A program made the translations under genes and the position numbers. Shown in pieces: positions 19,611-57,754 of a stretch of 64,000 bases of DNA. Under the pieces are notes generated by a model. That model worked only from the letters and a program-made list of their open reading frames with translations. It did not search any database and was not told the origin of the DNA. This DNA is from Patellaria atrata CBS 101060. Lineage: Eukaryota. Numbering within the stretch: position 1 is the first letter of the stretch; each line of letters begins with the position of its first letter. Location: assembly GCA_010093705.1 (NCBI GenBank), contig MU006098.1, positions 355,981-419,980 of the forward strand, read 5' to 3'.

Positions 19611-19975
19611 GAATGTCTTTAGTGCTCGGGCGTAGGATATTACTGCTGTGGTCCTGGTGTAGGAGTCATGGGTTTGATTCTTTCTTTGTAGCAGATACTG
19701 TTAGACGGACAAATATAAATATCAATCATGCTTCTGCAAATACTTGAGTGACCTGCAGCTTGGTAAATTGAGAAAAAGTTAAGAATCTAAGGAATTTTAA
19801 GGAGAACACTAGATCACTTGTCTGCATCGTCATAATCCTTATGTTTTACTCACAAAGTATCCCCGTCTACACCACGTGAGACTCCCGCGCAGATTATGTC
19901 AGTAATTGTTCAAACAAAATCCCTTCATTAAACAAGCACCTTATAAGTACTCAAACCCTGATCACTTTCAATTCT

Positions 19976-20159
19976 GGCGGCAATAGCTGAGCGGTGGCAT
20001 TTCCTTTGTCATATTTCCTTCAGTCAATTTCCTATCAGTCAAATTTCTAAGTCTTAAGTTCGAGCCCCGGCTCCGCCAGAATATAAAGTTAAATGCGTTC
20101 GCCGGGTTAACTTTCCCTCTTCGGAGGTTTTCTTTTGCATTTTTTTTCTCTTTTTTTTT
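19976..20159 (+). ncRNA. Candidate Pol III unit 1: degenerate tRNA-like head plus hairpins and oligo(T)
   Basis: TATAAG 19942; A box TAGCTGAGCGG 19984; B box GTTCGAGCC 20058; GGCGG(19976)/CCGCC-A(20073-20078) acceptor-like pairing; stem AAAGTTAA/TTAACTTT; CCTC-TTCG-GAGG 20116-20127; T8 at 20140 and T9 at 20151. Confidence 0.55.
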
Positions 20160-20492
20160 AAAAAAAAATTCCTCTAAGGTTCTAGGTGTGAAAAGAGGTG
20201 ATAGGGAAGGATAAAAGAGAAAGATCTCATGGACACGTATGAAAACACGTTTATGAGTGCTATGTCACCACACGCTTTGTGAGTTTGTTGAAGCCCATCA
20301 AGATCAGGAATCACTCTTTTGCCACGTCAGAAGCTGTCATAAAAGTGCTATATAACTCTAAAATAAACCCGCATCACCATTAGAGACCTCATAAGAAACC
20401 GAATCCTTCTATCAAGTAACACTTTATCCCTAAACTGTATTCCGAAACATCTACTTATTCAAAACCATAACAACACCACAACCAAGTTCAAC

Positions 20493-20840
20493 ATGAAACT
20501 TCTATTCACTCTCCTCCCACTCCTCCTCTCAACTCCCGTCCTCTCATGGCGCCTGCGCATCTGGACCGGGACCTCCTACCGCGGGCGCGTCCAAACAATC
20601 ACCGATCGAGACATGGTCCAATTCAGCTGCACACCGCTCTCGTCCAACAAGGGCAAGTCACTCAAAATAGACGTCGGAATGTATTGCTATATGCATGAGA
20701 ACAGTGACTGCAAAGGAAATAAGATATTGGTGAGGGGTGGGGAGGAAATAAAGGTTTTAAAGCGGTATGGGTTAGAGAATAAGATTAGCGCGGTGTGGTG
20801 TTGGGGACATTCGACGGAGTGGCAAGACTATCCGCGCTAG
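20493..20840 (+). CDS. Small secreted beta/gamma-crystallin-like protein C (115 aa)
   Basis: TATA at about 20350, CAAC-ATG, signal peptide MKLLFTLLPLLLSTPVLS, WTGTSYRG, KSLKI, HENSDCKG, ENKISAVWC. Confidence 0.85.
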   Translation: MKLLFTLLPLLLSTPVLSWRLRIWTGTSYRGRVQTITDRDMVQFSCTPLSSNKGKSLKIDVGMYCYMHENSDCKGNKILVRGGEEIKVLKRYGLENKISAVWCWGHSTEWQDYPR

Positions 20841-20996
20841 GCGAGATGTGAGGAGACAGGAATACGAGTTAGGGGTTGAAAGTTGAGTTATGGTGACTGG
20901 TTACCGTACCCAGATAATTCTCGACAAATGGAAGGTGTGTAAGAGATTGGACATCTATGGAAACGAAATAGTAACTTGTATACCAATGTAGCTGCT

Positions 20997-23199
20997 TTAG
21001 TTCATTAACTTCCCAAATCCTTTACTCTGCTCACCTTCTCTCCAGCGGACGCGTTTCTTCCACTCCTCCACAACTCCATTCCACTCAGTCACTCCATACG
21101 GCGCCACCCACTCCCCCACTCCTCCTTTTCTCCACCTCTGAAGTCCCAGATCACCCTCTAACAAATCAAAGTACGGGACTGCATCAAGTACTAAATCTGG
21201 GACCGCCTTTTCCTTCTCGGGAAACCTATACTTCTCAAACCTCGCATACAACACCGCGTTATACCTGATAGCGTCAAATTGAGGCGGGGATGGTGACGGA
21301 ATTGGGTTGAGTCTGTCGGAGAAGTACGCCGCGATCCACAGGGCCTGGAGCTCGGCGCAGACGGCGGTGCGGAGGTTTAGGAGAGCGCCGGCGAAGGCGA
21401 TGGTACGTTTGGAGTAGTACGAGGGGGGAACAATAAAGCGATAGAGTGCGTAACCCTCCCATTTCTCGCTATACGAAGATGGTAAAGTCGTATGGTGAGC
21501 CGCAAGTAGTGGGAACCGCCGTTCGATTTCCCTATCTGCGCTTGCGATGATCGAAGCATCTTTCTCTACCTCATCCTTTGTGGCGATATGTGGGAGTCCT
21601 AACTTCACGTCCAGGCCTTCTGGGAGGAATTTGATTGCAGGGATTGGTGACCATCCAGTTGCGCAGATTAGAGCATCTGTTTCCAGTGCCTCACTTGTAG
21701 AAAGATGAACGCAGCCCGCGGATAAATGAGTGATATCTGCAATATGCACCTTGATAATTCCGTTTCTGACGTACTCCAACGGATCCTCCCCGTAATTCTT
21801 AATTCCCAGCTCATTACCAGCAAACAACGCACTATGCCACGGCTTCAACTTCTTTGTCTCGGGATGTTTGTCAAACCCCATCAGTGCCACCGTGTCGGTC
21901 CCCAGTATCCAGAAGAACACTTTCACTATCATTACACCTAACCATGTCTGGTGCAAAAACCATCGGATGCCTGCGTACCCATCCGAGTCAAAGATACAAG
22001 GTGAAAGCCAGGTGGCAACCCGTGTGGAGACCAACTTCTCAAGTTGTCGTTTAAGCGGTGTTACGAACGCCGGAGCCATCCACCGCGGTCCGGCGCCTGA
22101 TGCACGGATGATCCAGTCAACGGGGATGCCGGTGGAGGCGTATTCATGCGCGACGTCCCAAGCGGACTTTCCACCGCCGAGCAGCGCGATCCTCTTCGTC
22201 TTCGCAGGATTCAAGGTTGCGGCGTTCTTCTTAAAGTCAACGGTGTGGAAGAGGGAACGGTCGAAGCTTTCGGAGCCTTTGAGTCGGGGTACGAAAGGGG
22301 TTGAAGTGAGACCGGTCGCAACGACGAGTTTAGAGGCTCTTAGAACTCTCTTTTCTCCCTCTCCTCCATCTGATTTAGTCTTGACATTGCATCCGATTCT
22401 CCACCCTCCGATCCCACTCTCAATCTCCCTCACCCACTCTACCCGCCATTCCAACCTGCACCTGCCCTTTTCCCTAAGTCCCCTCACCTCAGCATATTCC
22501 TCTAGATATGCCCCCATAATCTCCCCGGGCACATGCTCGCCTTCTTTCACCTTCAACCCCTGTCCCGCGACCACTTCTTTCAGCGGGAAATCCGGGAGTT
22601 CGTACATGCCGAGGAGATTATTAGTCCTAAGTCCAGGGTACAACCTATGGCGGGCCCAGACGCCGCCAACGTAAGGGGCGGCATCGATGATGGCGATATG
22701 AGAAGCGGGATGGAGCGTAAGGTGAGTAGAAGCAGCTGTAAGACCGCAGACGCCTAAGATGGTATTAGTGGATTTTGGGTAAGGTAATTGTAGGTTATGA
22801 AGTGAAGGGTTAGGGGGCCTGATATGCGTTCCGCATCGTCCCGAAACTGCCACACAATAAAGTGGTATACCGGTCTGATATACAGGAAGTAAGAAAACCA
22901 AAAAAAAATAAGTGGGGGGGGAAAAGATTTTATTGTACAGATATATAAAGTTGCGATATTGCGGTATGAACGGTCCTGCATTATGTTCGGCAGGCGTACA
23001 CAGGCCGAGCCTACCGAGGATGCTAACCGTGACTAGTACCGCGATATGCGAACTAAGAAAGGAACTAAATGGGAAGGATAGTGAAATAGTGAAAATAGCA
23101 GGAGTAGAGGTAGAAGAAAAGATCGCGTGACTTTAGGAGCCGAAAATAGGGTAGTTTACCTGCACCGATCACTACAAGATCGAGTTGTTCTTCCTCCAT
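20997..23199 (-). CDS. Flavin-containing monooxygenase (class B, FMO-like); exons 23199-23160 and 22753-20997
   Basis: Splicing GTAAAC..CACTAAT..TAG (intron 22754-23159) restores MEEEQLDLVVIGAGVCG (FAD GxGxxG). Also GGVW, LVVATG, FMO-like FDRSLFHTVDF and NADPH motif GGGKSAWD. Confidence 0.92.
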
Positions 23200-23714
23200 G
23201 ATGCCTAACTAAACTCGACGTGCTTTGTTCGGATTTGTGAAGATCAAACACTATCACAACTGAATATATAGTAGAAAAGGAAAAAGCAAAAAATATTGGA
23301 GCTGATAAAGTTGAAAGTTTGTGTGGGATTCTGATGATACAACAGTGTTTTAGCGCAGCCCTAGTGGTCTAGATGCTGTACGATTAATATCATCGCAGCC
23401 GCTAGCGACTTTATACGAGTAGTTGTGAACAACAAGAAACAAACGGTAAGTAGCTGAAAATGGTACGAGAAGTGGAAGAGAACACTAGAGTGGCTTATAC
23501 AAGGTGTAACTTATGCCTAAAGATGGATGAACAACGTGGTACCTGTACAATCCTAACCTCTTTCAGCTATCACAGAAATCAAACCAGATAACACCAGGGA
23601 AAGACTACCCTAGATGCCAGCCTCGTTCCCTTGAGCAAGTTTACTTGGTAATACTTTTTGTACACTATGACCCTACACTTTCGTCCATATGGTACACCTA
23701 ATATCCCTCTTTAA

Positions 23715-25047
23715 TCAACCCCCAGTAACCGGTAAATCCCTCTTCTTAAGGTTCTTCTCAATGAGCTTCCACCTACCCACCTCCTTCTCCTTGTCTATGG
23801 GTGTAAACCTCCTATCAAATATCTTAACATGTTTCAACTTGGTCAACTCGCCAATGACCAGTGATTCAACTAATTTGGTTTTTGAAGGGTGACGTAAGCC
23901 CTCATAGAGATGGCGAGCCGTTTTAGAGGTCGTGATGAGAAAATCCGGGATTCTTAGGCGAGTGAGCTGAATAACGCGCTTGATGACCTGATGTGGAGTT
24001 AGAACTTTGAGTCTGTGGGAGGCTTTGTAGTACGGTAGGAAGCCAGTGGATGCAGTAGCACTTACGTAGAACTTAACAATATCGTCTTTTAGGGAGAAAT
24101 AGTCCATCCAATGCTTAGCTTCCCAGGTGGGTTTCCGCTTATTAGATATATCGGAGACCTCTTCCGGGATTAATTCTGTCCCGTCCGTATCTTCGGCCGA
24201 AAATTCCCCCTGCTCATAGGTCTCAGCAGCCGCGTTTGAGTCGCCATTTTGTTCAGTAGGTCTTATGCCCATGATACTAAGAATTTCGTTCTGGATATCC
24301 TCACTGGGGTAGACAAGTTGCAAATCTTTGTCCACAATCTTGAATTTAACGCCCTCAGTCCAATTTGTAGGGTCCAAGCTCGGGTTCTCCCATCTCTCTT
24401 TCAGTATTGTTCTCCATGAATCTTGTGAGTCGCTGGCATAACGAAGGGCAAGGACCTCAATAGCAGCACGACGGATAGCAGAGTGGATTTCGAACTTAGA
24501 GACATCGTCTTTAAGCCGAATGAAACTACACAAGCATGATTAGCGAAACATAATCCAATGTTAAGTATTTAAACCTGGCCCAGTGAAGTGCACAAAGATC
24601 ATACCTCTCAAATTTTTCATGTGGACTCTTCAACTCTTTAACCCAAGCGTCACTCCCCACCCACTCTAGCCCATCCCAACTCTCTGCAGGCGTATAATAG
24701 CGTTCATTTTCCACCGCCTCTTGCCCCTCCCCAACATTGTCAACCTCCACCTCGTCCTCTGCCATTTCTCTTCCATCTACTTCTCGGCCAGCATACTCAG
24801 GCACCGCACTCTTCATCGGCGAGTCCCTAGAATATGGATCAACCTGGCCAGGTGGATTATCCGTGCCCCAGATCTTCCGTCTCAATTTTTCAGTATACGG
24901 TTCCTTTTGTTGGTCCTCTCGCTGGACGCGAGCTGACGAAAAAGGGCGGGCATTGCGCAATTGACAGGCGTGACATAGTGAAGAGGGACGGCGGACATGT
25001 TCGAAGAAATATTCAAATGTCTGAGTTGATCGCGGTAGACGTCGCAT
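23715..25047 (-). CDS. MRPL50: Mitochondrial large ribosomal subunit protein mL50; introns 24526-24604 and 23988-24065
   Basis: Basic presequence-like MRRLPRS, LRRKIWGTDNPPG..DPY, and C-terminal KFYVIKRVIQLT..RIPD..RRFTPIDKEKEVGRWKLIE, typical of fungal mL50. Confidence 0.82.
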
Positions 25048-25383
25048 TATTGTTGTTAGGGTTAACAATGATGGAATTGGGAGATGGGAATGTCTGGGGG
25101 TGACAATTAGGAAATTTAGCTTAGGATCGGGATAGGGGCACGGGCCATGCGGAAGAGACAGGAATTATGAACTGCAACTACCAAATGGAAATATTGGGAT
25201 TTGAGAGATATAAAAGGACTTGTTACCTTAGCATCAATGACACAATCAGTTGATCCAACTCTGAACCCATTGTAGATACATAACGCCTGATCCAACCATT
25301 TTCACTCCATACATTGCAAGAACCACACATCGTAAACATCCAAGGTACGAATATACAAAGCATCCTATAGAGGCTGGTACTTG

Positions 25384-27615
25384 TTAATACTCCACCCCCC
25401 TCCCACTACCCATCCGTTCTATATTACTCATAATCCGGCTCTTTCCTCCACTAATACTTCTGCTCAAGTTCCCTGGGGGTTTAATACCCCCGATCCTACT
25501 CTCACCTATCGAAGACGGTGCCTTGAGACCGGACGGGCGTAACATACTCTTCCTGAAATCCTCGACCACAGCTGGTGTGTTATTCGGTACATCCGCTTGA
25601 AGAGCGAGCATCTCATCGACAGCAGCAACCAATTCTCCTTTTTCGACCCTTTCTCTCTCAAGATCAGCGAGAACCACTGTGTAGTCTTCTCGCGCAGATC
25701 TGACTTCCTGCTCTAGACCGGCTAGTTTGGCCCTCTGCTTCTCGAGTTCCGTGCTTTGAGCCTCTATCTTCAACTTCTGCTCTTCGAGTCTCTTCATATC
25801 TGCCGCCCGTTCCGCGGTTGAAAGATCAGATGGCAAGACGCCGGAGAATGTGGCATCACGGCCCATTTGAAGTTCCTCCATTTGTTTGGTCATGTCGCCG
25901 ATCTTGCGTTGCAGCTCGACGCACTTCTTCTCCGCTTTCGCCTCATACGATTTCTTGAGCGCAGCGACCTTAGTCTCGTGTTTCTTCTTATACACGACAT
26001 GGAGTTCCTTGCACAAAGTAGCGACTTTGTCATCGATCTGCTTCTGGACTTGCTCCGCCGTAAAGCGCGGCGAGTGTGAACCCTCTTCTTCACCGATGAA
26101 AGCCTGTGTCTGATCAACAATCTTGCTTTCCGCTTCAACTGCTCTCTGATCAGCCTCTGCTGCTCTGAGCTCGGCATCATGAGCTCTCCGTTCACTCTCT
26201 TCAAGTCTGCGGATAAGCTCCTCCCGTTCCCTCTCGTTGCTCATAATTTCGCCCTTGATGCTACGGAGGACTTCCTCGACTTCGTTGCCTCGTTTAACCC
26301 AATCAGCCTTTTCCTTCTCTGCATCTTCACGTGCGCTCTGTTCCATACGGGCGTTCTCTTGCGCTTCCCCTGCACGGCGTTCTGAATCGGTAACAGCCTT
26401 TTTCAAACTTTCGACCTCTGCTTCCTTTCCGTTAAGAGTTGCAGTCAACGATGAGATTTGGGACTGATACGATGATTTCATCGACTCCAGTTCCCGAACC
26501 GTAATAGTGGGGACGGACCGTGGTGTGGGTGCAGGAGGAAGTTCAAAATCGAGCAGGTTAAGGATGTTTCGTTTCTCTGACGGTGTAGATGGAAGAGTAT
26601 GCTTTCCTGGTGAACGTTGGTTACTGATGTACGACAGTAAACTCGGCCCACTGTGCGACTTAGACGGAGAATGACGCCTCGTTTTAGAAGGTGTCGCGCG
26701 GGCTGAGTAAGAGAAAGACTCCATCTGCTGTGTGAAGTCGAGCAAGAGGTTTGTTGTGTCGCTATCGGCCTTGTAACCGTTTGTGCGTCGAGGTGTTGGA
26801 GAAGGTGAGCCATTAAAATCATCTACCTGGTGTCTCCTAGATGTACCTGGTGTGTAGAATGCGGCGCTTCGCGGAGTACGAGTCTGGGCGGTGTCCATGT
26901 TGAACGTCTTGGCTGGACTACCTTGTCCCAGTCTGGCAAATTGTGTCATGTCTGCATTTGGGATTTCTGAAAACGCACTGAAGCAGGTATCGTCAATATT
27001 GGTCTGCTCATCGATTTGTTCGTCGTATGAAGTGCTCTCGTGGTATCTAAACTCTTCGACTACAGTCTCCTTTCTCGTCTCAACTATGTTCCGTTCATCC
27101 TCCATCATCTTAATTGCGACTGTCAATCCTTCATTCTCGCGCAGTTGCTCAACTTGCTCATTAGAGCTTCGCTTGATGGGTGATTGTCTTGGTCGCGAGG
27201 ACTTTATTGGGGAAAGGTGCCTTGAGGCGAGCCGCGGTGTCGCCTCTACGATTGAATCATCCTGAAAGATGTCGACTTCCGCAGCGCGATCAATTGCAGT
27301 CGTCGGAGGAGTAGTAGACACCTCCGGAAGTGCTTCCGTCTGAAGGGATAACTTTACTGGAGATCTCTGCTTTGGCGGACTCTGCGTCTTAATAGGTTTT
27401 GATGCTGTAGGTGGCGCATTCTCTTGATCAATTTCTGCGACAAATGGCGAGCTTGGTGGATCGTAATGCGATATATCATCATCCGGAAAATCGCCAACAG
27501 GTTTGCTATCCGGTGATGCATTTGCCGAGAAGTAATCCACGGTCTTTGCTGCAGTGCCAGGCGTTCGATTGAGAGCAGAATTCGAAACCGGGGAAAATGG
27601 AATCAAGTCCTCCAT
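25384..27615 (-). CDS. SLK19: Kinetochore/spindle coiled-coil protein with Slk19-like central kinetochore-associated domain
   Basis: 743-aa ORF with SP/TP-rich N-terminus, long coiled coil and motif ELHVVYKKKHETKVAALKKSYE. Confidence 0.78.
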   Translation of the reverse strand: MEDLIPFSPVSNSALNRTPGTAAKTVDYFSANASPDSKPVGDFPDDDISHYDPPSSPFVAEIDQENAPPTASKPIKTQSPPKQRSPVKLSLQTEALPEVSTTPPTTAIDRAAEVDIFQDDSIVEATPRLASRHLSPIKSSRPRQSPIKRSSNEQVEQLRENEGLTVAIKMMEDERNIVETRKETVVEEFRYHESTSYDEQIDEQTNIDDTCFSAFSEIPNADMTQFARLGQGSPAKTFNMDTAQTRTPRSAAFYTPGTSRRHQVDDFNGSPSPTPRRTNGYKADSDTTNLLLDFTQQMESFSYSARATPSKTRRHSPSKSHSGPSLLSYISNQRSPGKHTLPSTPSEKRNILNLLDFELPPAPTPRSVPTITVRELESMKSSYQSQISSLTATLNGKEAEVESLKKAVTDSERRAGEAQENARMEQSAREDAEKEKADWVKRGNEVEEVLRSIKGEIMSNEREREELIRRLEESERRAHDAELRAAEADQRAVEAESKIVDQTQAFIGEEEGSHSPRFTAEQVQKQIDDKVATLCKELHVVYKKKHETKVAALKKSYEAKAEKKCVELQRKIGDMTKQMEELQMGRDATFSGVLPSDLSTAERAADMKRLEEQKLKIEAQSTELEKQRAKLAGLEQEVRSAREDYTVVLADLERERVEKGELVAAVDEMLALQADVPNNTPAVVEDFRKSMLRPSGLKAPSSIGESRIGGIKPPGNLSRSISGGKSRIMSNIERMGSGRGVEY

Positions 27616-27706
27616 TTCATAAACTTTAAAAGTATTGGTAGTCCAAATGGCGGGAGCCGAAATCGAAGTTGGTGGTGAGTGGTAAGTTGTGTGTCGGCGT
27701 CGTCAG

Positions 27707-27730
27707 TGTTTATTTTCCCGATGTAAACAA
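27707..27730. promoter_or_regulatory. Two inverted forkhead-type sites upstream of the Slk19-like gene
   Basis: TGTTTAT 27707-27713 and GTAAACAA 27723-27730, about 90-115 bp upstream of the ATG. RTAAACA is the fungal Fkh/Sep1 motif of mitotic genes. Confidence 0.45.
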
Positions 27731-28856
27731 TGCCAAGATATTAGCCTCTCCCAACGACGGCACGTGATTTCGAAAATTATACGGAGTCTTCATGCAGACC
27801 ATATTGATAAGGAGTAATCATGCAGGTTATCCTTCAGCTCCTCTCAATTCTTGAAACAAGGCTAGAGCACTTTTTCTTAGTTATATCGAGGAAGGATAAA
27901 AAATAAAATAGAATATATTATTCCCCTTATCTAGAAGAATAAGCATATAATTATCGATTTGAACAATATTCATTAGTCGGTAGTAGAATTCTACTAAGCT
28001 GAAGGCATATTCGTAGTTTTTATCGATTTTGGTGGTTGTTATCCCACGACTTATCTCGCTGAGCCTTGAAATCTTCAGTGGAGAGTCTTCTTCACATCCC
28101 CGCTCAATATCTCCGCACCTTATGTTATGGAACAATAGAACTTAGTAAGTTTACGGTACGGTAGGTCTCTACCTATGACTAACGCTACCTGGACTTCTTG
28201 CTCAGTAAAGCTAGCAATCAACACAGTTCTACCACAATACACTTACTACTTAGATCCAAATCTTTCGCAATGACGAGTAGTATATCTTCGGTACTTCTCG
28301 CCTCGTATCGCTCTAGATACTGGGAGGCCATAGGCGGTGTTGCCAGTGTCTACTGTTTGATTTTCTTACTCCATCATCTTCTAAGCATATATGCTCCTAA
28401 TCGCGCCAAGGTATCTGTGCCTAATCCCTGGTGCCCTCTTCCCGCCCATGGTAACTGGCTGACTAACGGAAAAACCTGGAGGTTAGCTACACGGTGGATT
28501 TTACTCTCGTGGCGAACTATATCCGAGAGTTAATCTACCCGCAAGAAGTAGATAATATTAGGAGATTCAACTGTATTCAAGGAGAGGGCTGTACACAAGG
28601 GATCGACTGTAACCCAAGGGGCACGCTCTAGAAAGGACACGATCACATTACCATCGATCAAAACATCTTCTGGAGATATCGATCATGATGGAAAGTTAAA
28701 GGGCGTTCGTCAGAGTACGTGTAGCAATGTCCAGAATTGGTGACCATGACTTAAACAAAGAACAAGTCCCTTTTAAATGATTGGAGCTATTTTCCATATT
28801 CCTATGTTAATTCATGACCTGTCCGCATTTTAAAGCCGTTTCAATTAATTTACCGC

Positions 28857-30937: not shown

Positions 30938-31387
30938 AATGGTGCAGATCAGTCTCCTTTGCAGATCGCGATTTAGTCTTTCGGTACTTCTTATCCCGAC
31001 TCTGCGCCCGACTGATTCTCAGTTCACTATCCGCCACACCTTACGATCTAATTCTTTCTCCTCTATCCTGGTAGACCTTCCTCAGCTTCCGTACACTTGT
31101 TCGTACTTAGTGTATTGCTCAGTTTGTAGGCCCGACGTTTGATTTATACGGTAAAGTAGATTCAACGATACGAGTTCCCCCTAGGTTTTGACTTCTTCAT
31201 ACATGGGACTCTGATATCACTTAATGGAAGGGCGTACAGAAGATGGCTGAAGTAGTCACAAGGGAGATGATACAGCATTTCAGGTAGACATGTGGACTTC
31301 CAGGCGCAAGCAAGTAATGACTGTTTTTCAACTTTTTTTTCTAATATACACGTACAGCGAAGTCTGTAATCCGATGGAAAAAAGCGA

Positions 31388-33109
31388 TCAGAATTGCTCC
31401 CGTATATCCAATGAAGTTGTCTTCCTGATATGACCGTGGCAAGTTTCCCTGTCCCTATGTGCGCTAAGCTCCATAGTATCAATCTGCGTATTCAGTTCAC
31501 TCTGACTACCATGATCTGTCCCGTCGCTAGCAACTCTTTTCTTTCGATAGCGATCCGAAGAAATGTCGGAATAGCTCTTTCGAGTATTCGACTTAGCTGT
31601 TCCGCATCCGTACCTAACCCATAGGGCTGGCAAAGAGGGTAGACAACCACAGATGAACCCAATAGCAACCTCCGCATTTCTAATTTCGTTAGCATATCAG
31701 AGGAAGGAAGTTGGGGGTTACATACGTCCAGAGTAGTACGCTTAGCCAACCGTAAGTTTTATCCTGATTGTGCTCAAAACGAATAGTATCTACGAGTCGA
31801 AGAATGCTGGCAATACAAGCCCTACAAATCTTAGTCCTGTTGATCAAGCAAAATATCCCTTTATATATACTCACAATCCGCCTGCTACAAAGACAAGCGA
31901 CACTCCAATCCTTTTGGATACCCTCATCTTAAGTTTCCAAATTGTAGGCAGAGGGAGAATCAGGATAAAAAGGTCCGAGACAATACTAACGACGCAATCT
32001 GTTATGAAGATGGCGTCACTGTCGAGACATTTCCCTTCAATAGTAGGATTCCAAAACTTGGGGATTGGCGAGCAGATGAATATCTTGACGATGGTAATCG
32101 CAATGTAGTAGAGAGCCATCAGGAGGATTCCGTAGTTGACGGAAATTCTGAGTATTCGGTTCACGCCAAAGACGCGCTTCACCATCAGTAGAATTGCTGC
32201 CTTCGTCGCGAAAGCCAGCGGTCCGTATAGAATCTCAATGATGTAGCCATACTATTTCCGATGAGCGTGACTGCGTCATGAAACTATTGGAAAAGACTCA
32301 CGTGAAATATGTCCATCACGTCGGTAACCAGCAGGTTCCACTGGTGAGTTCCGAATCCATGGTTCGAAACTGTTCTCATTAGGATTTGCAAATAATCATA
32401 AGGATGGACTCCTTACCCACTAAGCAAAGTGCTGAGTACGGAATCATTATAGCCTTTCGCCTGTTATCAGCATAAATAAGTTAGAGTACCACTGCATGAC
32501 CTACCCAAGCACAAGTACTAGCATCTATCCAGTGTTAGCGACTCTATACATATGTTGTGCGCTCTCCTGTCATGCAATTTCTTGCATAATGTACGCTACA
32601 TCTACAATTTCTCTCCCATTCTTTTTACGAATCAAAGGAAATGAAGGGAAGATGTTTAATTGTATGAACAATTCACAAAAACAAATCCGGATCTTATACA
32701 ACCGTCTGAAGGTATATCTGACTCCGTTGTACCGAAGTCCTCAGTTCGTACGGTGTAGTACGACCCGTACGCAGAACTCAAGTGTATGCATAATGGAGTT
32801 CCATTGATATACCAGACCCGACAGTTTGCCAGTAATCTGTTCCCCAAGCGGACAGAAACCTGAGCACTACTAACCGTGACAGAAAACATAAGCGTAAAAC
32901 GACTTACAATCATCAATTGTGAAAGCTTTGAGTACGAACGTCTTTGAGAATATTCTCAGTCCAAAGAAACCAGTAGTAGCTATTACCACAAGGATTTGAG
33001 TGAGGTTGTTGACCCAAGCGAGTGATGGTGGATCGGCGAAGTTAGGTTCTTGTCCCTCCGGAGGAGGCATCGCACCACGTATAGCAGATCGAAAGATAAA
33101 GGAAAGCAT
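31388..33109 (-). CDS. Pth11-like 7-TM integral membrane protein (fungal rhodopsin-domain family), multi-intron
   Basis: GAMPPPEGQEPNFADPP, GLRIFSK..TIDDY, HGFGTHQW, YGPLAFATKAAILL, CSPIPKFWNPTIEGKC, SDLFILILPLPTIWKL, AEVAIGFICGCLP. GT-AG introns restore the frame. Confidence 0.88.
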
Positions 33110-40812: not shown

Positions 40813-42156
40813 CTACTTCCCTCGCTCCAACAACTTCACAAGAGTTTCTAGCACTAGATCCGCCTTCTCACTACACCTAACAGCAAACCTACCCGTATTA
40901 GCTGGTGGTACATTTGCGAAGAAGGTCTCCTCGCCCCTCACACCACCTAAATTAACGATTCCAACCGGCATGCCGTTCTCTGTTGCTCTTTTCACAAGCC
41001 TCCACGCAGAATAGGTCGCCAAGCTGCTCCCCACCACTAATATCCGACTTGACTCATCAACAGCGCTTTCCGCCGCCGTCTTGACAAGAGTTGGAATATT
41101 CTCCCCAAACATGACCACTGCCGGCTTCAGTATACCCCCTGTAGAGGTCGTTGCCCAGGCTCCATCCAGATCGATGTCTACCCTTATTGAGTTCCCATTC
41201 ACACCAACAGGTGAATTCTGAAGACATACAGGACACGCCGGATACCTAAAGGTGCTATACGGCGCGTTCGGGATATCCACGTCGCCATCGGGGTTCGTCT
41301 TTAGCCCCTTCTTTTTCCGTTCTTCGGGGTTCTCAGTGGTGAGGGCGCCGCTTGCGAGCATTTCGGCCAGGAACTCGGCCCAGGTAGGGTTGAGCCGGGA
41401 GAGTTCGGTTTGGAACTGGGAACGCGGGTATTCGGAGCGGCAGGTGAGGCAGATGAGGGAGCGGAGATAGCCATGCAGTTCGATTGTAGGAACGGAGGGA
41501 TGGGTGAGGGGGTGGAAAGAGTCAACGTCTAGAGATAGATAGGTCAGTTGTAATGTCTACAAGACCGCATTGTTCAAGTTCAGGAACTACGGTATGTATA
41601 TTATCCTACAGAGTTCCGATACCCTCGGAGGCTCGTTGCTCGGTTGCGACTTTTGATATTAGTCACCTTATCCCAATTGGCACTTAATACAGGTTTATGA
41701 ATGCATACTCTAAGTCAATAGAAATCTCAACCTACTCTGCGTGATCACCTTACTGACCCATCCCCGCTCTCCTAACATCCCTACAGCATGGTGTGCTCTA
41801 TTCGGCCTCGCCCTCTCTAAATTGGTCCATCCCAGGAAACTCCTCGCCCAATATCTCTTCCTCGCCTCATGATCATTTGTGAATTCGTGAAAGTATATTG
41901 GACGATATGTCTTATTCAGCGTATAAGTGCCATTGGTACCTCTATAATCAGCCAGTCCTGATGCCACACTAATCCCCGCTCCTGTCAAGAGTACAGTCTT
42001 GTCACCATCCTTCCCACGACTCTTTAACTGGTGAGATGGCGGTGCAGTAAAGAAATTATACAACGCCGCAACAGCGCCAGTGAGTGTATTCGCATTGCGG
42101 GGAATAATAGTCGGAAGCGGTAGCGGGGAGGTGTAAGGTACGCGCATTAACCCCAT
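40813..42156 (-). CDS. Sir2-family NAD-dependent deacylase, class II (SIRT4-like); intron 41529-41735
   Basis: LTGAGISVASGLADYRG, RKRYWARSFLGW, ITQ|NVDSFH, ELHG..CLTC..CPVC, LKPAVVMFGE, VGSSL, VNLG. Confidence 0.93.
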
Positions 42157-46300: not shown

Positions 46301-46601
46301 CCTGAGCTGCCGGCAGCCCGCATATGACAGTTTACAACCCACACAGCCCGTCACTGGTACGTGACAAGCTAAAGATTTGTTATCTGTGTGACAGTAAGCA
46401 AATCTACTGAGTACCTCAATACTCAACATGGCCTTGCGGGGGTTCCTCATAATAAGCATGCATGGCTGGTTCCTCGCGCATCCTCTCCCGTCCTCACCCG
46501 CTCTCAAGTCCATGTCAGTGTCTTCTCTGCCAGAACGAAATTCGCATTCAGCGAGCTCAATGGTAACAATAAGAAGAGAAAATATGACCACGTAAATAGC
46601 A

Positions 46602-49332: not shown

Positions 49333-50874
49333 ATGGCACCGACGCGACCCAACCATCGCAGTTCGCATGCTCCTGGGGGAGATACGACATCCCGTGCGAG
49401 AAATACCCATAACTCCTCTAACCGGGGTTATATCCCTACGCAACTCTTCCCCAATCTTCCTCGCCCGTCTGGCTCATTGCCGACCGCGGCTAGAGTAAAC
49501 CCTCCCCTTGCTAGGCTCTTCCCGAATCTTCGTCTCGATCGGAACACGAACGGTCTGAGCGCTCGCGGAGTCGAGACCACATCCCGCGCCAGGAGCACGA
49601 ACAACACTGCTCGCCGTGGTAACGTCCCGAACCGGATCGTTCCCAACCGCCCCAGTCGAACGTTCCCCAATCTCCGTGGTAACATCCCCACCGGGACCGT
49701 CCCCAGTCCTTCTCGTCGAATCTTCCCCAGTTTCCGTCGTGATCGAGACTCATTCCGCCCCGTGGCAGGCAGGGATAACCTTCACGGAACCCAGGAGGAA
49801 GTTAAATCTTTGTCTTCTTCATCTGAGAACGAGAACATGGAAGAAGTCATAGAGGAAGACAAGCAGAAGGAAGAAGAAGAGGACGAAACCATGCAAGAAC
49901 AGGAATCTGAGGAAAATATCGACGAAGAGGGGACCTCATACGAACCTGAACACACCGCCGAACACACTCGTGCTTCCACCCCATCGCCTAGGAGCCGCCG
50001 CTCTGTCCGCACGCCCCGTACCCGAGATGCTAGAGGTCGGTTTGTCGGCACATCGAGGACCGTTTACTATCTTCGTGGTACGTTCGAGGAAATCCTCGCC
50101 AGTTCACGTCCCGTTGGGACCGGGGTGGATGCGAGGAGACGGTTGATAACCCGGTGGATTGATAATACGGTTGAGCTGCGGGGAGAAAATTCTCCGGTTC
50201 CGGAGATGGAGGAAGAAGTCATTATGTCCGTTGAAGAGAATGTAAGCGCTATGGTAGGGATTAAGGCTGATAGTGATGACGAAACGAGTGAAAAAGCAGA
50301 TGAATATGAATCCGAAGCCAAGCCTGAGACTGAAGTTAGAGTCGAAACCGAAGTCGAAAGTGAAGTTGAAACCGAAATCGAAGTCAAAGCTAATGTGGAA
50401 ACTGAAGCCGAAACTGAAGTCAAGAACAAACAAGAGGCTGATGTTGAAGAATCAGAAGCTGAGGATGAAGAATCAGAGGCTGAGTATGAACAAGCAGAGA
50501 CCAACGTGGACGAGGAGATGACAGAAGCTGATCCTGAATTCGCCGAAGGTGAACCCGACGAAGCAGAAGTCAGACTTACCTCCATTGAAAAGATCGACAC
50601 TCGTGACGCCTCGGAGGACGAGACTGAATCTGGCTCTGAGTTTTCGATAGAAGAAATGGAGTTAGATGAGCCATTCACGGTTAAGGGGAATGAATGGCGG
50701 GAGGACGACGATAAGGAGGATGGTTGTTATGAGGGATATGAAGGGGTGCAATGGGACGACGATGAATATGACGACGATACCGATGATGACGACGAGAGCG
50801 ACGATGACGATGAGGACGAGACAGAGGATGAGAATGATATTAAGCATCACACAAACAATGTTAAGAAGGTGTAG
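49333..50874 (+). CDS. Low-complexity protein: R/N/P-rich repetitive N-terminus, very acidic C-terminus
   Basis: 513-aa ORF with AAC-ATG-G context, FPNL/FPSF repeats, duplicated TTSRAR, ETEV repeats and a poly-D/E tail. Confidence 0.8.
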   Translation: MAPTRPNHRSSHAPGGDTTSRARNTHNSSNRGYIPTQLFPNLPRPSGSLPTAARVNPPLARLFPNLRLDRNTNGLSARGVETTSRARSTNNTARRGNVPNRIVPNRPSRTFPNLRGNIPTGTVPSPSRRIFPSFRRDRDSFRPVAGRDNLHGTQEEVKSLSSSSENENMEEVIEEDKQKEEEEDETMQEQESEENIDEEGTSYEPEHTAEHTRASTPSPRSRRSVRTPRTRDARGRFVGTSRTVYYLRGTFEEILASSRPVGTGVDARRRLITRWIDNTVELRGENSPVPEMEEEVIMSVEENVSAMVGIKADSDDETSEKADEYESEAKPETEVRVETEVESEVETEIEVKANVETEAETEVKNKQEADVEESEAEDEESEAEYEQAETNVDEEMTEADPEFAEGEPDEAEVRLTSIEKIDTRDASEDETESGSEFSIEEMELDEPFTVKGNEWREDDDKEDGCYEGYEGVQWDDDEYDDDTDDDDESDDDDEDETEDENDIKHHTNNVKKV

Positions 50875-51032
50875 TCCTTTTCGAGATTGAACGATCTCGT
50901 CCAGGTAGTTGGCTTGTTATGAGAGGAGTACTAGCAAGTAGATATTATTAGTCCTAAATATGAATCTTAGTGTACTAAGGTATAATCCGAACCCTAAAAG
51001 TGAGGACGAGTGATAGAAGAGACCGAAGGACC

Positions 51033-51072
51033 TGCTGTGAAGGAACTGTTGTGAAAGACCTGTTGTGAAAAG
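51033..51072 (+). repeat. Three 14-bp tandem repeats (CTGTTGTGAA core)
   Basis: ctgctgtgaagga / ctgttgtgaaaga / ctgttgtgaaaaga. Confidence 0.7.
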
Positions 51073-51193
51073 AAATGTATCTGAGTGATTTCATCGAAAG
51101 TGGAAATGTCAAGCCTGAGGCACTAGCTCTATCCTGTATAGATATATATGATCAACAGATATGATTTACTGATACTTAGGTTGCTAGAAAAAA

Positions 51194-52190
51194 TCACCAC
51201 CACTTCTCGCACAGCACTCTTTCCTTAGCTATACCCTCTTGGTCCTGCAGGAAGGCCACGAATTCATCAGTCATTGGAGGTGGACCGCAGATGTAGCAAA
51301 CGGTTGCCTCTCGTTCTGCAACATCCCCAATTGCTGATATGAGATCGTCTGACGTGATCCGTCTTGAATTCAGAGTTTCCCGGATTTTACCTTGAGTTTC
51401 CGGTAATTTTCCAGTGAGAAAGAGATCTAGTTGAAATTGACCCGGTCGCAGCTTTTGTATAGACTGGAGACGATCTACGAATAGTATCTCGTCAAGTCCT
51501 CTAGAGCCAGATTTAGTTCCGTATAGAAACTTTACGCTTGGTGGCATCTCATCCGTTTCATGAAGATGTGTCACCATTGATATTAAAGGACTGCAAAGTT
51601 CAAATCAATCAAAGGATTTCATATAAGTCGCCCGGGTCTTACTTTATTCCCACTCCACCAGCAACAAACACAATGTTCTTAACATCCCTTCCGGAAATGC
51701 AGGTCGGGGGCCATATAAAGCTACCACCTACTCTTACACGTAGTTCTGAGCCAACAATGTCATCTTCATGCCTCCAAAACCACGCAGCTGGAGGGTTGGA
51801 TGGTGATTTCTGTACAGCAAGCTCAAGATACGGTCTGGATACGTCCCCTGGAGGTAGTGCACTCTTGGGCGTTGATGTAATAGTGAACCCTCCAGCTTTG
51901 GTTAAACCAGATACAAATACATCCAACCACTGGCCTGGGAGGAACTACTGTGGTATGATCGTGTTAATAACTCGAGTCATTCATACCAAAGCAAGCCAAA
52001 ATGTCACCTTTATCCCGTGGTTCTGATCCAGAGCATCGAGACGAAAGAGTTTGATAGAATCATTTACCCGCTTAATGCCTTCGACGAGTACTGTATGGGT
52101 AATTTCTTCTCGCGGCTCTGTGGATGTACGTTCTTCGTGACTGAGGGATGAACGGACTGTGCGCATGGTACTGAAGGACGAGGAGTGCAT
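51194..52190 (-). CDS. FNR-like oxidoreductase, NAD-binding domain protein (OXNAD1-like), 2 introns; start codon uncertain
   Basis: HEERTSTEPR, FLPGQWLDV..AGGFTITSTP, LELAVQKSPSNPPAAW, RVGGSF, FVAGGVGINP, YICGPPPMTD..LCEKWW. Confidence 0.88.
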
Positions 52191-52910
52191 GTATCGTATG
52201 ACAATGCTTCTGCACGAAAATAGAGAACGGAGTCGACCCGTAACTATAACCATTAAGAATAGAATAAATTGCGTTAGTGCCAAGTCAATAAGCTATTTTC
52301 AGATTGAGAATTGATGAATACACCCAGCGTGTTACCCAGAAGAGAAAAGATACCAATCTTACCGTCAGGTCCGGAAACCTAAAGATGAGACATTGTAATA
52401 TATGCGCAAAGTAAGCCCCTAGAATTGTCCTTTTATGAAGACTTAGCGATTAGTAAGGAGGGAGGTTGGTGAAGTGGAAATGGTGTAGTTACCTTAAGGT
52501 AAACCTAAGCCGAGCGCATAAAAAAGTTAGGCTTGGCGTCCAATGGTCGTGTGCTGGTCGCCGGATCAAGAGAGCGTAATGAAGAGAGGTGTAAGTTCTA
52601 CCCCACTATATCAGATATGAGAATTCCCGATATTGCATTTCATGTTAACGGCTTTTAGACACGCTTTCAAAGGAAATATCCGACTTTCTCCTCAATAGAC
52701 CGATCACCACTATTCCCCTTGCCTGAATTTCACCGCCAACCTGTCACCACCTCACCCGACGATCCCAAAATAACACCAAGATATCTATTTATCCCATAAG
52801 GCTGCAAATCTACACCAAAACACAATTTCCATGAACCTTCCACGGTAGCAATCTGGATCTGTTCGTTTGTCGAGCTGTACCCCAGAAATCCCCTACAACA
52901 GCCGGCCGGG

Positions 52911-55900
52911 ATGGATGCCCAGGTACGTATTGGTAGCAACCGTGGTAGGGACTCTATACTGAAGCTCATACTGACTATGATGTTGTATTAGATAGAAGAA
53001 GCCGTCCAAATTGCATGGAATCCTGGCTCGAATCAAAACCTGAAATCTCAGGCGTTCAACTTCCTCAATGACCTCCGCGCCGATACCTCTGCATGGCAGG
53101 TCTGCCTATCGCTCTTCACACGCACACATCGTCCCGCAGAGACAGTAAGACATTATTCGCTTGAGATTGTCAATAATTCTGTCCAGGCCCAGCAACTGGA
53201 TCCACAGAGCCTTACTTTCATAAAGGACAATCTTATGAGCTATATAATACAGAACTACGGCCAAACATCAAATGCTGTAGACACCCCACATATCCAGAAC
53301 AAGCTTACTCAGACAATAACATATCTATTTACCTCTCTATATGCTTCATCTTGGAGAAGCTTCTTCGATGAATTTCGGGCATTATCTGGGGATGAGAACG
53401 CCATTGGTATAGCGAATCCTGTTGGCACGATTCTCTACCTCCGCATCTTACAGTCGGTACATGATGAAATAGCAGATGTTCTAGTTGCTAGGTCTCCGGA
53501 AGAGCAGAGACGGAATACCGAATTGAAAGACATTGTGCGAGTCCAGGACGCGCAGAAGATCGCCTTATCATGGCAAGAGATTCTAGCTAAGTGGAGGCAG
53601 GTAGAACTACCAGTGATTGAGATGTGTCTCAAGACCGTCAGCCGTTGGGTAAGCTGGATTGATATATCTCTAGTTGTAAATCAGGCAATTCTCAGCGCCC
53701 TCTTCGACATCGCCGGAATACAAGATGTCTCTCCGAGCGAACCGAAGCGGGCGATTGTTAGGGACACTGCAGTAGACACGTTCACCGAAATAGTGGCCAA
53801 GAAAATGAAACCTGCGGATAAGATCGAATTACTTATAGTGCTGAATCTGAACGCTATTGTCAGTCAACTGGTTTCGAGTCCTGCGCTCTCTGATCTCAGG
53901 ACGACACCAAATTACGATGTTGACCTTGCTGAAGCTGTGGCGAAGCTGGTTAATACTGCTGTATTTGACATTGTTAAGGTTCTAGAAACCGATTCGATAG
54001 ATCCAACACTATTCCAACGCGCCGATGAACTATTGCAGGCTTTTGTTCCCCATCTACTGCGTTTTTTCGCGGATGAGTATGATGAAGTCTGCTCAACCGT
54101 GATTCCTTCCCTTACAGATCTTTTGACTGTCTTTCGCAAACTTGTCAAAGTCAAAGGAACCCTTCCTTCGCATTTCTCTACTATGCTTTCGCCTATCTTG
54201 AACGCTATCATCTCGAAAATGAAGTATGACGAGACGGCCAACTGGGGGGACGAGGATGAGGAGACCGATGAAGCTGAATTTCAGGAGCTCAGGAAGCGGC
54301 TTCTAATCCTACAACAGTCAATTGCAATTGTTGACGAACAGCTCTACATGGATACCTTGAGCAATGTTGTTGGTACTACCTTTAATAGAATCACAACAAA
54401 AGACTCGAGCTTAGATTGGAGGGAACTGGACCTGGCATTACACGAGATGTACTTGTTTGGGGAACTTGCTCTTAAGAATGGTGGCATGTACGCTAAGAGG
54501 CAACCTTCTTCCATAGCGTCCCAAAGATTGGTGGAGATGATGTCGAAAATGGTCGAGTCTGGTGAGCGAAATGGAAGTGATGCGAGAGTCCTCTGCTAAC
54601 TTGCGGATAGATATTGCATCCTTCTGGCACCCTGCTGTTCAACTACAGTATATGGAGATTTGCGTTCGATATTCATCGTTCTTCGAACATAACGCACACC
54701 TAATTCCAAAGGTTCTGGAGCAATTTGTGCGCATCACTCACGTTTCTAATCGGGAATATCTAAAAGTTCAAAGTCGTTCGTGGTATCTTTTCTTACGGTT
54801 CGTTAAACCATTACGCATGCATCTTGGAGGTGTTTCACAAACCGTCATCCAGGCCATTGGAGATCTATTGACCATAAAAGCCGAGTTACCAGAGGACTCT
54901 GGGGACGATGATATGTCTTCAGACGAAGCAGATCATTCCGCGGATGCGATCTTCAACAGTCAACTTAATCTATTTGAAGCAATTGGCTGTATTTCTTCTC
55001 CACCCTCCGTTCCAATTGAAAACAAGGTTTTGTACGCACAGTCAGTTTTGAATCCCCTTTTTGCCGATTTAGAGCAAAATTTGGCACAAGCCAAAAATGG
55101 AGACGAGCGAGCAATCTTACAAATACATCACATCACAATGGCGATTGGTACATTGGCCAGAGGATTTTCAGATTGGACTCCTGGATCATCTGGCGCCCCT
55201 CCGCCAACTCGGCTATCCGAAGAATTTGCACGAGCCGCTGAAGTCATCCTAGTTGCTTTGGAGTCTTTAAGATCATCCATGAACATCAGGACGTCTGCCC
55301 GTTTCGCGTTCTCCCGATTACTTGGTGTTCTTGGATCTCGAGTGTTACAGCAGCTTCCTCGGTGGATCGACGGACTTCTATCACAAAGTTCTACGAAAGA
55401 TGAAATGGCCACATTCTTGAGGCTCCTTGATCAAGTCGTCCACAGTTTCAAAACTGAGATCTACGGCATCCTTGATACTCTCTTGACACCATTACTACAG
55501 AGAGTGTTTGCTGGGTTACAAGAGCCCACTACAGGCACCGATGATGAGATACAACTCGCTGAGCTTCGCCGCGAATATCTCAACTTTCTTCTCATCATTC
55601 TTAACAACGAGCTTGCCTCTGTGCTTGTTAGTGGTGGTAAGCATCCCAACGGCGATTTTTTAATCTATTCACTAAGTTAAACAGGCAACCAACAAACCTT
55701 CGAGTCCATTATCACTACTATCGAACACTTTGCCCGGGATTCAGCTGATTATCCTAACGCTCGTCTCGCAATTTCCGTTCTCATTCGCATGACTGTTGTC
55801 TGGGGTGGCCTAGATGTCCCTCTACCAACAGCTGCTAATCCGACACCGTTGCAACAGCCATCACCCACTCTACCTGGTTTCGACTCCTTTGCCACGACTC

Positions 55901-56175
55901 GTTTCTCGCCTCTGTGCTGGAGTATACTAACAACTCCTGGTTTCAGCCCCAAGGATCCTCAAGCTAGGCAGTTATTACTGGAAGTTGCAGGGTTACAGCG
56001 TGAAATATTGAAGAAGACGGGTAGTGCATACCTAGATAGGCTGAGGGAGGAGCTCTCAGGGATCGGCGTTCAAGAACAGGGGATGGATGAGTATCTTGGT
56101 GCTTTGGTGAACAAGGACGATAAAGGATTCAAGCAGTTTTTCCTGCAGTTTATTGGTCGTGCTACTGGAGGCTAG
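52911..56175 (+). CDS. LOS1: Exportin-T (tRNA nuclear export receptor); introns near 52923-52991, 54563-54610, 55637-55684
   Basis: [86 protein letters not shown]. Confidence 0.93.
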
Positions 56176-56228
56176 ATAGATTCATAGTTGTACAATTGAA
56201 GCCTTCAAATGATTATTCCATGATGTTT

Positions 56229-57157
56229 CTACTCAATTTCCATCCTATCGCCCTCCATCTCCAAGGCTCCCTGCTTTGCCCTGCGCAGAACACGCTTGGT
56301 TTCGCGCATTTCCGCCTTAAGTCTTTCCCGTACGACATCGAAAATGGCGTTTTCGAAATTGGTGTACGGATTAAGCTGGTGCGAAATTCTCGTGCTTCCC
56401 ATGCTCTGTACTAATTCCTCCATCGTCCCGACTTGTGCATCCTGACTGCCAAAGCCCACAAACTCCACCCATTCGAACTTCATGGTCTTGTACCGGGAGA
56501 GCTCTATGGCGCGATGCCATTCCCCCTAGCTTGGGCTTCCTGGATCCTCTCTATTATAGTACGCCACCAGTTTTCCGTACGATTGAGTCGCATTTGGAAA
56601 TTGTGACGTTGGTGTTGCGTCATTTCCTGGGTAGGGAGGAGATTCAAGTCGGGTCCGTACGTATAGACCCCTAGTACGAAGTACTCGCGGGCGGTGTAAA
56701 TATCGGGATGGTATGTTGCCTTGTAGAGAGCCTCATAGTAGATCTTATGTACATCCTGTACACCGCGTCCCTCAATCCAGTCCGTCCTCATGAAAAATTG
56801 AAGATACTCAAATGTCAGCCGTACCGTATCGATAGCCCTATCCGTTGACTACCTGGAATCGACGCCGCGGAATACGCAAATCCTCATGGCCTCAAGGCTC
56901 ATATCGTGATTCAGCTCGGCCCCATATCGCTCGAATTCGTGATGTACACAGAGCTGATCACTGGGAGTACAGCCGGGAGGTGGCTGGAGGTTATAGTTAC
57001 GGTACGCCTTGATCTCCTGCTTGTGCAGGTTGAGATGACCTTCGATAGCCATAGAGCCCAATCCCTATTTTCCTCAGTCAGTATGATAAAGGATGAATAT
57101 ACAGGCATGACTTACTCTTGTTGCAGGATCATTCAGGTTTTCAGTTTGAGAAGACAT
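56229..57157 (-). CDS. Hypothetical protein, 2 introns, one-base frameshift at the C5 run 56522-56526
   Basis: Exon 1 57157-57116 (GTAAGT donor), exon 2 from 57064, exon 3 from about 56786. One extra G gives QARGEWHRAIELSRYKTMKFEW and joins the 56229-56483 ORF. Confidence 0.62.
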
Positions 57158-57440
57158 GATTGGCGTATAGAAGTGATATTAATATGAGCAGGAAGGTAGA
57201 GTTTGTTGAGATATGAGAAAAAGGTGGGTTGAAGTGAGGTTGAAGAAGTTGGTTGCAGAAGCGGCGGAGGAGGCAATGAATAGGCAGCCCAGCGGGAGGT
57301 CGAGCATGTGATGGAGCAGGTCCATGAAGGTAATGAGAGTGACTGCAAACCGGTATTTGTATTGGAAATGTATCCCGCCGTTGGTTTTTCCGAAACCGCG
57401 TCGATGCTGTTAGTTTATAAAAGGTTTGGTAAAATCCTGA

Positions 57441-57754
57441 GCCTCGGTGGCCCGGGAGGGGCCACGCGTGATTGCAGCACGCGGGGGTGGGTTCGATTCT
57501 GGTTTATCACTGATAAGTTCACTTTCTCTCACTAATATATTCCCTAAGAACTACTAATCTACTTCAAATCAGACACAGATCCCGGAGGCTTAGGCTCCCA
57601 GGACCCGAGGATGACTCCAATACGCTTGTACTGGGTCAAATATCCTCGAAAACTTCAATCAAATAACTTTTGTGGGAGATGACAAACCCTCGCAAGAGAG
57701 AGATGTACCACACACCCTTCGGAGTGTGTGGGAAAACTTTTTTTTTTTTTTTTT
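57441..57754 (+). ncRNA. Candidate Pol III unit 2: tRNA-like head, four hairpins, T17 terminator
   Basis: TATAAAA 57416; A-box-like TGGCCCGGGAGG 57448; 5-bp/7-nt arm GCGTG-ATTGCAG-CACGC; B box GGTTCGATTC 57490; hairpins 57584-57598, 57606-57648, CTC-GCAA-GAG 57689-57698, CCACACAC..cTTCGg..GTGTGTGG 57708-57731; T17 57738-57754. Confidence 0.62.

Follow-up and report, generated by a model that had tools for sequence, protein, structure and literature searches.

Two Probably Independent tRNA-Gene Derivatives with RNA Polymerase III Signals in a 64-kb Stretch of Patellaria atrata

Units in which the remains of a tRNA gene head an unrelated sequence have been described in Aspergillus fumigatus, where the AfuSINE2 short interspersed nuclear elements (SINEs) comprise eight tRNA-related units of 140–493 bp that are reported to be single or low copy, mutually dissimilar, and in no case foldable as a cloverleaf, with heads derived from Ala, Ser, and other tRNAs and with transcription of five of the eight (Kanhayuwa and Coutts 2016; PMC5063351). 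Here we analyze two loci of apparently similar kind in a stretch of 64,000 nucleotides (nt) from the wood saprobe Patellaria atrata CBS 101060 (contig MU006098.1, positions 355,981 to 419,980 of the forward strand), hereafter the window. We refer to them as locus 1 (positions 19942–20159 of the window) and locus 2 (57416–57754). A first-pass annotation of the window had proposed that the two belong to an undescribed class of fungal RNA polymerase III (Pol III) RNAs, in which decayed tRNA genes act as promoters for 3′-trailer RNAs that have the protection of a terminal cUUCGg stem-loop and are perhaps released by RNase Z or RNase P. We conclude that the loci represent a known kind of tRNA-gene derivative and not a new class of RNA. 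Our favored explanation, to which we assign a probability of roughly 0.55, is that they are two independent derivatives of tRNA genes, each with the full layout of a type-2 Pol III gene, locus 1 being a relic and locus 2 a tRNA-headed unit.

By analogy, the AfuSINE2 units appear to be very much like both loci. They too reside in a filamentous ascomycete and combine degenerate A and B boxes in a tRNA-derived, non-cloverleaf head with a body that is unrelated to tRNA. They are defined, however, by target-site duplications, and one of them is described as having a 3′ end related to a long interspersed nuclear element and a tail of ACT repeats (PMC5063351), whereas the P. atrata loci have a T-run terminator and an upstream TATA box, with no duplication at locus 2 and no more than a trivial one at locus 1. 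As in tRNA-derived SINEs generally (AfuSINE2, MgSINE, and Foxy), a tRNA-related head is joined at both loci to an unrelated body, which is clear at locus 2 and minimal at locus 1. Retroposon-like traits of locus 1 are limited to a run of nine A's (A9) and the 5-nt sequence AATTC, repeated directly at 19970 and 20167; such a tail or duplication is absent from locus 2 (both as judged by eye).

The concept of the trailer RNA, in which a fungal tRNA-type promoter drives a downstream structured RNA, is exactly that of tRNA-Trp-RUF70 in Yarrowia lipolytica. There, all 13 tRNA-Trp(CCA) genes are reported to be followed by RUF70, a structured RNA of ~70 nt that extends to a distant T-track and gives a band on northern blots, and 48 5S genes are reported to lie behind tRNA genes in dicistronic tRNA-5S units (Acker et al. 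2008; PMC2566860). The leader of RUF70, however, is described as an intact, essential tRNA that is processed normally, and its 13 copies exhibit compensatory changes (PMC2566860), whereas the heads of the P. atrata loci are decayed, one or two copies are seen, and the trailer of locus 1 is not structured beyond chance. Indeed, neither locus has a processable leader tRNA of the RUF70 type, as the T stem of locus 1 is broken and locus 2 is without a 3′ acceptor strand. The tRNA–small nucleolar RNA (snoRNA) genes of plants and the tRNA-microRNA (miRNA) units of murine gammaherpesvirus 68, from which RNase Z is reported to free the downstream RNA (PMC2566860, PMC2780460), resemble the P. atrata loci in combining a tRNA or tRNA-like head with hairpin RNAs and a T-run. 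But their heads fold as RNase Z substrates, whereas the P. atrata loci have no snoRNA boxes that we could recognize by eye and have hairpins (24–43 nt) that are short for precursor miRNAs.

Other comparisons come from budding yeast and rodents. In Saccharomyces cerevisiae, RPR1 and SNR52 are reported to carry A and B boxes in their 5′ leaders, and ZOD1 and YGR033C (iYGR033c) are described as ancient tRNA genes to which the Pol III machinery is still bound, ZOD1 being weakly transcribed (PMC5356446). RPR1 and SNR52 resemble the P. atrata loci in having the boxes in a 5′ portion that is similar to a tRNA without being one, but the downstream products are RNase P RNA and a C/D snoRNA, neither of which is found by Rfam in the window. 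Moreover, because the Neurospora homolog of snR52 is described as intronic (PMC2780460), an SNR52-type reading is without support in filamentous fungi. In the rodent BC1 and 4.5SI genes, as would be the case at the P. atrata loci, a tRNA-derived head is the internal promoter and is retained in a small RNA that is not a tRNA; these genes differ in being mammalian, in having much shorter products (~100–150 nt), and in lacking any sequence relation to our loci. BC1 is of tRNA-Ala origin. The 4.5SI genes are reported to have tRNA-derived A and B boxes and, in addition, to require TATA-like boxes at −31/−24 (PMC10137851).

The evidence that the two loci are real is the co-occurrence of Pol III signals (Table 1). 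We scored a strict B-box core (GTTCGANNC), a run of at least eight T's within 320 nt downstream of the core, and the sequence TATAA[AG] 65–125 nt upstream of it. In many fungi, a TATA box lies near −30 of type-2 Pol III genes. For background we used 80 metagenome ascomycete loci encoding relatives of exportin-T (50–65% identical), which total 911,563 nt and are the best 80 of 179 that were confirmed among 500 pattern matches; the query alignment consisted of 27 of 120 listed proteins. In the window, two of the four B-box cores were followed by a T-run, as compared to none of 141 cores in the control loci, and two of the four (those of locus 1 and locus 2) were preceded by TATAA[AG], as compared to 2 of 141. 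A TATAA[AG] sequence at a suitable distance is available to ~3% of the positions in the window. Complete units were found twice in the window and in none of 300 first-order Markov simulations of it. Furthermore, the window has only six homopolymer runs of at least eight T's or A's (four T-runs and two A-runs), of which three are at locus 1 and one is at locus 2. The remaining B-box cores (at 32362 and 58762) and a T8 at 31333 have no other Pol III signal near them in the window. With a less stringent T-run of at least six, the combination with a B box occurred six times in the control loci, once in a normal tRNA-Ser gene and five times in sequences that by eye are unrelated. The signals thus co-occur at both loci beyond chance. 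Apart from the exceptions given below, the features listed for the two loci in the first-pass annotation were present where it had placed them, and both loci have A and B boxes at tRNA-like spacing, a T-run, and a TATA box, although locus 2 has only a weak A box. A complete Pol III layout on decayed tRNA heads is therefore upheld to the extent that sequence statistics speak for it. A scan of the window for bacterial-type terminators was uninformative (16 sites, as compared to an expectation of 14.5 ± 3.9), and the terminal hairpin of locus 2 was not among the sites because its T-run begins 6 nt past the stem.

Table 1. Features of the two loci, in window coordinates
Locus	Feature	Position	Strand	Remarks
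1	TATA box TATAAG	19942–19947	+	42 nt before A box
1	tRNA-derived head	19972–20081	+	9-bp acceptor-like stem, 19972–19980 paired with 20073–20081
1	A box	19984–19994	+	fits TRGCNNAGNGG
1	14-nt tandem repeat, 3.3 copies	19999–20047	+	in place of anticodon and variable arms
1	B box	20057–20067	+	core GTTCGANNC from 20058
1	Trailer hairpins	20085–20114 and 20116–20127	+	second hairpin CCUC-UUCG-GAGG, canonical C(UUCG)G loop, 4-bp stem
1	Terminator tract	20128–20168	+	T4, T4, T8 (20140), T9 (20151), then A9 (20160)
2	TATA box TATAAA	57416–57421	+	75 nt before B box
2	tRNA-derived head	57440–57502	+	D-like hairpin 57447–57465, anticodon-like hairpin 57466–57482, 4-nt variable region, T loop in register
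2	B box	57490–57500	+	core from 57491
2	Pyrimidine-rich spacer, ~75 nt	57503–57577	+	scant predicted structure
2	Hairpin H2	57606–57648	+	z = −4.74
2	Hairpin H3	57667–57698	+	GAUGAC of H2 again in loop (by eye)
2	Terminal hairpin	57708–57731	+	10 pairs, one mismatch/bulge; CUUCGG at 57717
2	T17	57738–57754	+	only T- or A-run of at least 10 in the window

Neither head is a canonical tRNA, as had been supposed from the outset. ARAGORN found no tRNA genes in the window with introns allowed and scores slightly relaxed; at thresholds of 80% and 70% it made five and seven calls on the two strands, which is the level of noise. The Rfam tRNA model matched neither locus even at E ≤ 10, and the same search mode gave 60.2 bits for a real tRNA-Trp gene in one of the control loci, L071, which served as the positive control. 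At gathering score, no Rfam family of any kind was found in the window. Thus, RNase P RNA, RNase MRP RNA, SRP RNA, U6, and snoRNAs were rejected as candidates for an RNA behind a tRNA-like leader, there being no match to their models at that score. At E ≤ 10 there were only unrelated, sub-threshold matches, the best of which were to bacterial terminator-like models and to snoR138 (17.8 bits; cut-off, 44). Inspection by eye likewise gave no C/D or H/ACA snoRNA, as there was no ordered UGAUGA/CUGA pair and no ACA three bases from the end. Two short motifs have what we take to be a passing resemblance to elements of snR30, without support from Rfam. Finally, blastn revealed no homolog of either locus in the 80 control loci; it returned matches of T-runs and one match of 22 nt to unrelated sequence in L041.

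Credible tRNA genes were absent from the 64-kb window and numbered two in the control loci, where a third call, for a tRNA-Val with an intron of 1,169 nt (L031), looks spurious. One of the two is the tRNA-Trp(CCA) gene of L071 (13867–14059), an uncultured ascomycete contig, where it lies 775 nt downstream of the exportin-T gene and is followed by no run of five or more T's for 115 nt. Since tRNA-Trp also carries RUF70 in Yarrowia, this trailer is possibly a RUF70-like RNA outside the yeasts.

Locus 1 appears to be a decayed class-II (Ser-like) tRNA gene. Both of its ends align with a real tRNA-Ser gene in one of the control loci (L015), and its T loop, the 3′ strand of its T stem, and the 3′ strand of its acceptor stem are in exact tRNA register when counted from the discriminator base. 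On its 5′ side the acceptor stem is one base out of register, and the T stem has TTAAG as its 5′ strand, where pairing would need CCGGG. This corresponds, by eye, to four transitions, and only one of the five T-stem positions can be paired. The structures predicted downstream of the head are not exceptional. Neither the whole unit (z = −0.62) nor the trailer (z = −0.66; 48 of 200 shuffles were as good) folds beyond its shuffles, and the 45 nt that precede the T8 fold at −8.2 kcal/mol, a value matched or surpassed by 8 of 43 control segments that precede a run of at least eight T's. Meanwhile, the first run of at least five T's past the two credible tRNA genes of the control loci lies, by eye, at ~66 nt (tRNA-Ser) and 115 nt (tRNA-Trp). 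The ~57-nt trailer of locus 1 is an ordinary long tRNA trailer with no sign of a selected RNA. It is possible that locus 1 is a retroposed copy, given the A9 tail and the AATTC repeat, though a repeat of 5 nt is weak evidence.

Locus 2 is different. Its head has an anticodon-like hairpin with a 5-bp stem and a 7-nt loop bearing UGC at the anticodon position, and it is without a 3′ acceptor strand. Beyond the spacer, a 3′ domain of ~140 nt with three hairpins (57600–57741) is far more stable than its shuffles (z = −4.26), none of 200 being as stable. The terminal hairpin, at −15.2 kcal/mol, ranks at the top of 49 segments that precede a run of at least eight T's and is equaled by none of the 43 such segments from the control loci. 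Its CUUCGG is followed by a C·A mismatch, however, and RNAfold favors a triloop.

We also aligned the contigs of two DNA-like runs from one sample on positions 52000–60000 of the window, and these revealed a second copy of the core of hairpin H2. On a separate contig of 2,397 nt from the runs of the same genome, 32 of 35 letters agree with positions 57604–57638. The flanks of this second copy have diverged, yet short motifs are kept on both sides, and by eye the same hairpin can still close there, although its 3′ strand is a different one. It thus seems to be under constraint in two or more copies. The presence elsewhere in the genome of a diverged copy of the central hairpin suggests, moreover, that locus 2 belongs to a low-copy family. 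A contig of 17,538 nt spans the head and body of locus 2 without interruption, and so the locus is not a young multi-copy repeat. We regard locus 2 as a fair candidate for a Pol III RNA specific to this lineage. By eye, GAUGAC occurs on the 5′ side of H2 (57610–57617) and again in the loop of H3 (57677–57683), and the spacer has ACUAAU twice, a motif similar to intron branch sites.

Are the two loci members of one class? As proposed, decayed tRNA genes throughout the genome would drive 3′-trailer RNAs that are freed by RNase Z or RNase P and guarded by a cUUCGg hairpin, and by analogy locus 1 may still be read as the source of such a trailer RNA. It is the case that CUUCGG lies no more than 25 nt from a T-run at both loci, that simulated windows contain on average 0.2 TTCG hairpins with T5 no more than 15 nt away, and that the published account of RUF70 offers a fungal precedent (PMC2566860). 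Indeed, the 115-nt trailer of the tRNA-Trp gene in the control set (z = −2.08) ends in a 9-bp hairpin and T6. But the two loci have heads of different tRNA types and, as was recognized at the outset, no sequence in common: sensitive blastn aligned only their T-runs, and it detected no second copy inside the window. A spacer (~75 nt) is present at locus 2, but there is essentially none at locus 1; the terminal cUUCGg stem-loop is found at locus 1, with its 4-bp stem, but not at locus 2, which has no clean UUCG tetraloop stem; and a trailer structured beyond chance is found at locus 2 but not at locus 1. A strict descriptor composed of a UUCG stem and a T-run accordingly recovered locus 1 in the window, missed locus 2, and returned an unrelated site at 41294. 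Release by RNase Z or RNase P is doubtful because the T stem of locus 1 is broken and locus 2 has no acceptor stem; neither head offers the acceptor/T-arm helix on which RNase Z depends. The 911,563 nt of DNA from other ascomycetes contained no such unit, and both real tRNA genes found there are followed by a trailer as long as that of locus 1. We consider a genome-wide family of this kind very improbable, and the grouping of these two loci in one family is not supported. Nor would the system be undescribed, as the concept has already been published for fungi in reports on Yarrowia, S. cerevisiae, and A. fumigatus (PMC2566860, PMC5356446, PMC5063351).

Two other explanations dispense with a trailer RNA. 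If both loci were retroposed SINE-type copies resembling AfuSINE2, their upstream TATA boxes would be coincidental. The T-rich tract of locus 1 does pass directly into A9, with the AATTC repeat on its flanks, and the body of locus 2 does have a diverged second copy in the genome; moreover, the AfuSINE2 units are described as similar in look and low in copy number (PMC5063351). We nonetheless regard this explanation as unlikely, given that a well-placed TATAA[AG] is found at both loci and is as rare as indicated above both among control B boxes and in the window. In addition, locus 2 ends in T17, and by eye it lacks an A-rich or simple-repeat tail, while any direct repeat on its flanks is of 4 nt or less; the uninterrupted contig through its head and body argues against a young multi-copy repeat; and a 5-nt repeat with free ends, as at locus 1, is expected by chance about once in ten cases (a rough estimate rather than a computed one). 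Alternatively, both loci could be inert relics that are at most bound by TFIIIC and give no stable RNA, the structure at locus 2 being incidental. This would suit the degeneracy of both heads, and TFIIIC-only (ETC) sites and weakly transcribed relics are on record for yeast (PMC5356446). Set against it are the stability of the 3′ domain of locus 2, which surpasses all 200 shuffles, that of the terminal hairpin, which surpasses all 43 controls, and the retention of the core hairpin in the second copy while its flanks diverged. We judge inertness of both loci to be quite unlikely. An explanation of a more ambitious kind is that locus 2 encodes a stably expressed, lineage-specific Pol III RNA of ~230–300 nt in Patellaria, with an exapted Ala-like promoter head and a three-hairpin 3′ domain. 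This domain, in which the GAUGAC motif is repeated and one hairpin is kept between two or more gene copies, would be a protein-binding module with a cellular role. This is possible, but we put it forward only tentatively; if true, locus 2 would be a fungal counterpart of BC1 or 4.5SI.

Several observations weigh against our own explanation, that is, two independent tRNA-gene derivatives. The label Ser-like for locus 1 rests on one alignment to a single tRNA-Ser gene, and the label Ala-like for locus 2 on where UGC falls in a loop of 7 nt. The folds of the heads do not stand out from their shuffles (z = −1.77 at locus 1 and −0.82 at locus 2). At locus 2, besides the weakness of the A box, the spacing of 75 nt between the TATA box and the B box is below that of a normal tRNA gene. 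The occurrence of CUUCGG just before a T-run at both loci is treated in our explanation as a coincidence, and the tRNA-Trp trailer of the control set is an actual example of a structured trailer, complete with terminal hairpin, that follows a real tRNA gene. Lastly, the control loci are from other species and all surround one gene, and hence the background they provide is a rough one.

What the signals, the stability of the folds, and the second copy could mean for factor binding, transcription, RNA ends, processing, and function under the explanation of two independent derivatives may be sketched as follows. Locus 1 would most likely behave as do the yeast relics ZOD1 and iYGR033c, with TFIIIC and TFIIIB bound to it and with weak transcription at most. 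At locus 2, TFIIIC would bind the B box and the degenerate A box, and TFIIIB would bind at TATAAA. Pol III would start at about 57440–57448, pass a weak T4 (57668), and end in T17. The predicted product is an RNA of ~300 nt with a U tail, composed of an Ala-like head in which no acceptor stem can form, followed by an open spacer and by the stable 3′ domain of three hairpins. Given the lack of an acceptor stem, RNase Z and RNase P would probably not remove the head, which would more likely be retained, as in tRNA-headed RNAs of the SINE type or of the BC1/4.5SI type.

The DNA of the window is fungal and rich in introns. It has an exportin-T gene (52992–54599), of whose product a 535-residue stretch matches exportin-T of Patellaria atrata CBS 101060 at 100% identity. 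The next-best proteins are no more than 68% identical, and this Dothideomycete is thus without a close sequenced relative. Between this gene and locus 2 is a gene on the minus strand (56200–57157) whose start codon is ~260 nt from the TATA box of locus 2; hence, locus 2 lies within the upstream region of that gene. On the other side of locus 2 is a plus-strand gene (58980–60300) that in five control loci (L002, L005, L008, L016, and L019) lies ~1 kb upstream of exportin-T but here lies downstream. The region has thus been rearranged in the Patellaria lineage, and there is no orthologous spacer around locus 2. Locus 1, in turn, is flanked by three small open reading frames (17375–17791 on the minus strand, and 19242–19610 and 20367–20840 on the plus strand), whose inferred products have signal-peptide-like starts and a common cysteine pattern, are 21–26% identical to one another, and belong to no Pfam family. 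From their sequences, these products seem to form a local family of small proteins of a secreted type.

Relics of tRNA genes and SINE-like Pol III units are both missing from the gene annotation of Dothideomycetes, and the two loci show that such units exist there and that a simple set of signals (a TATA box, a B box, and a long T-run) suffices to pick them out. The findings have no bearing on a long-standing open question. Locus 2 is a concrete candidate for a case in which a filamentous fungus has gained a new structured RNA from a decayed tRNA head. For the expression of guide RNAs in the Patellaria lineage, the promoter and terminator of locus 2 would make a natural Pol III cassette.

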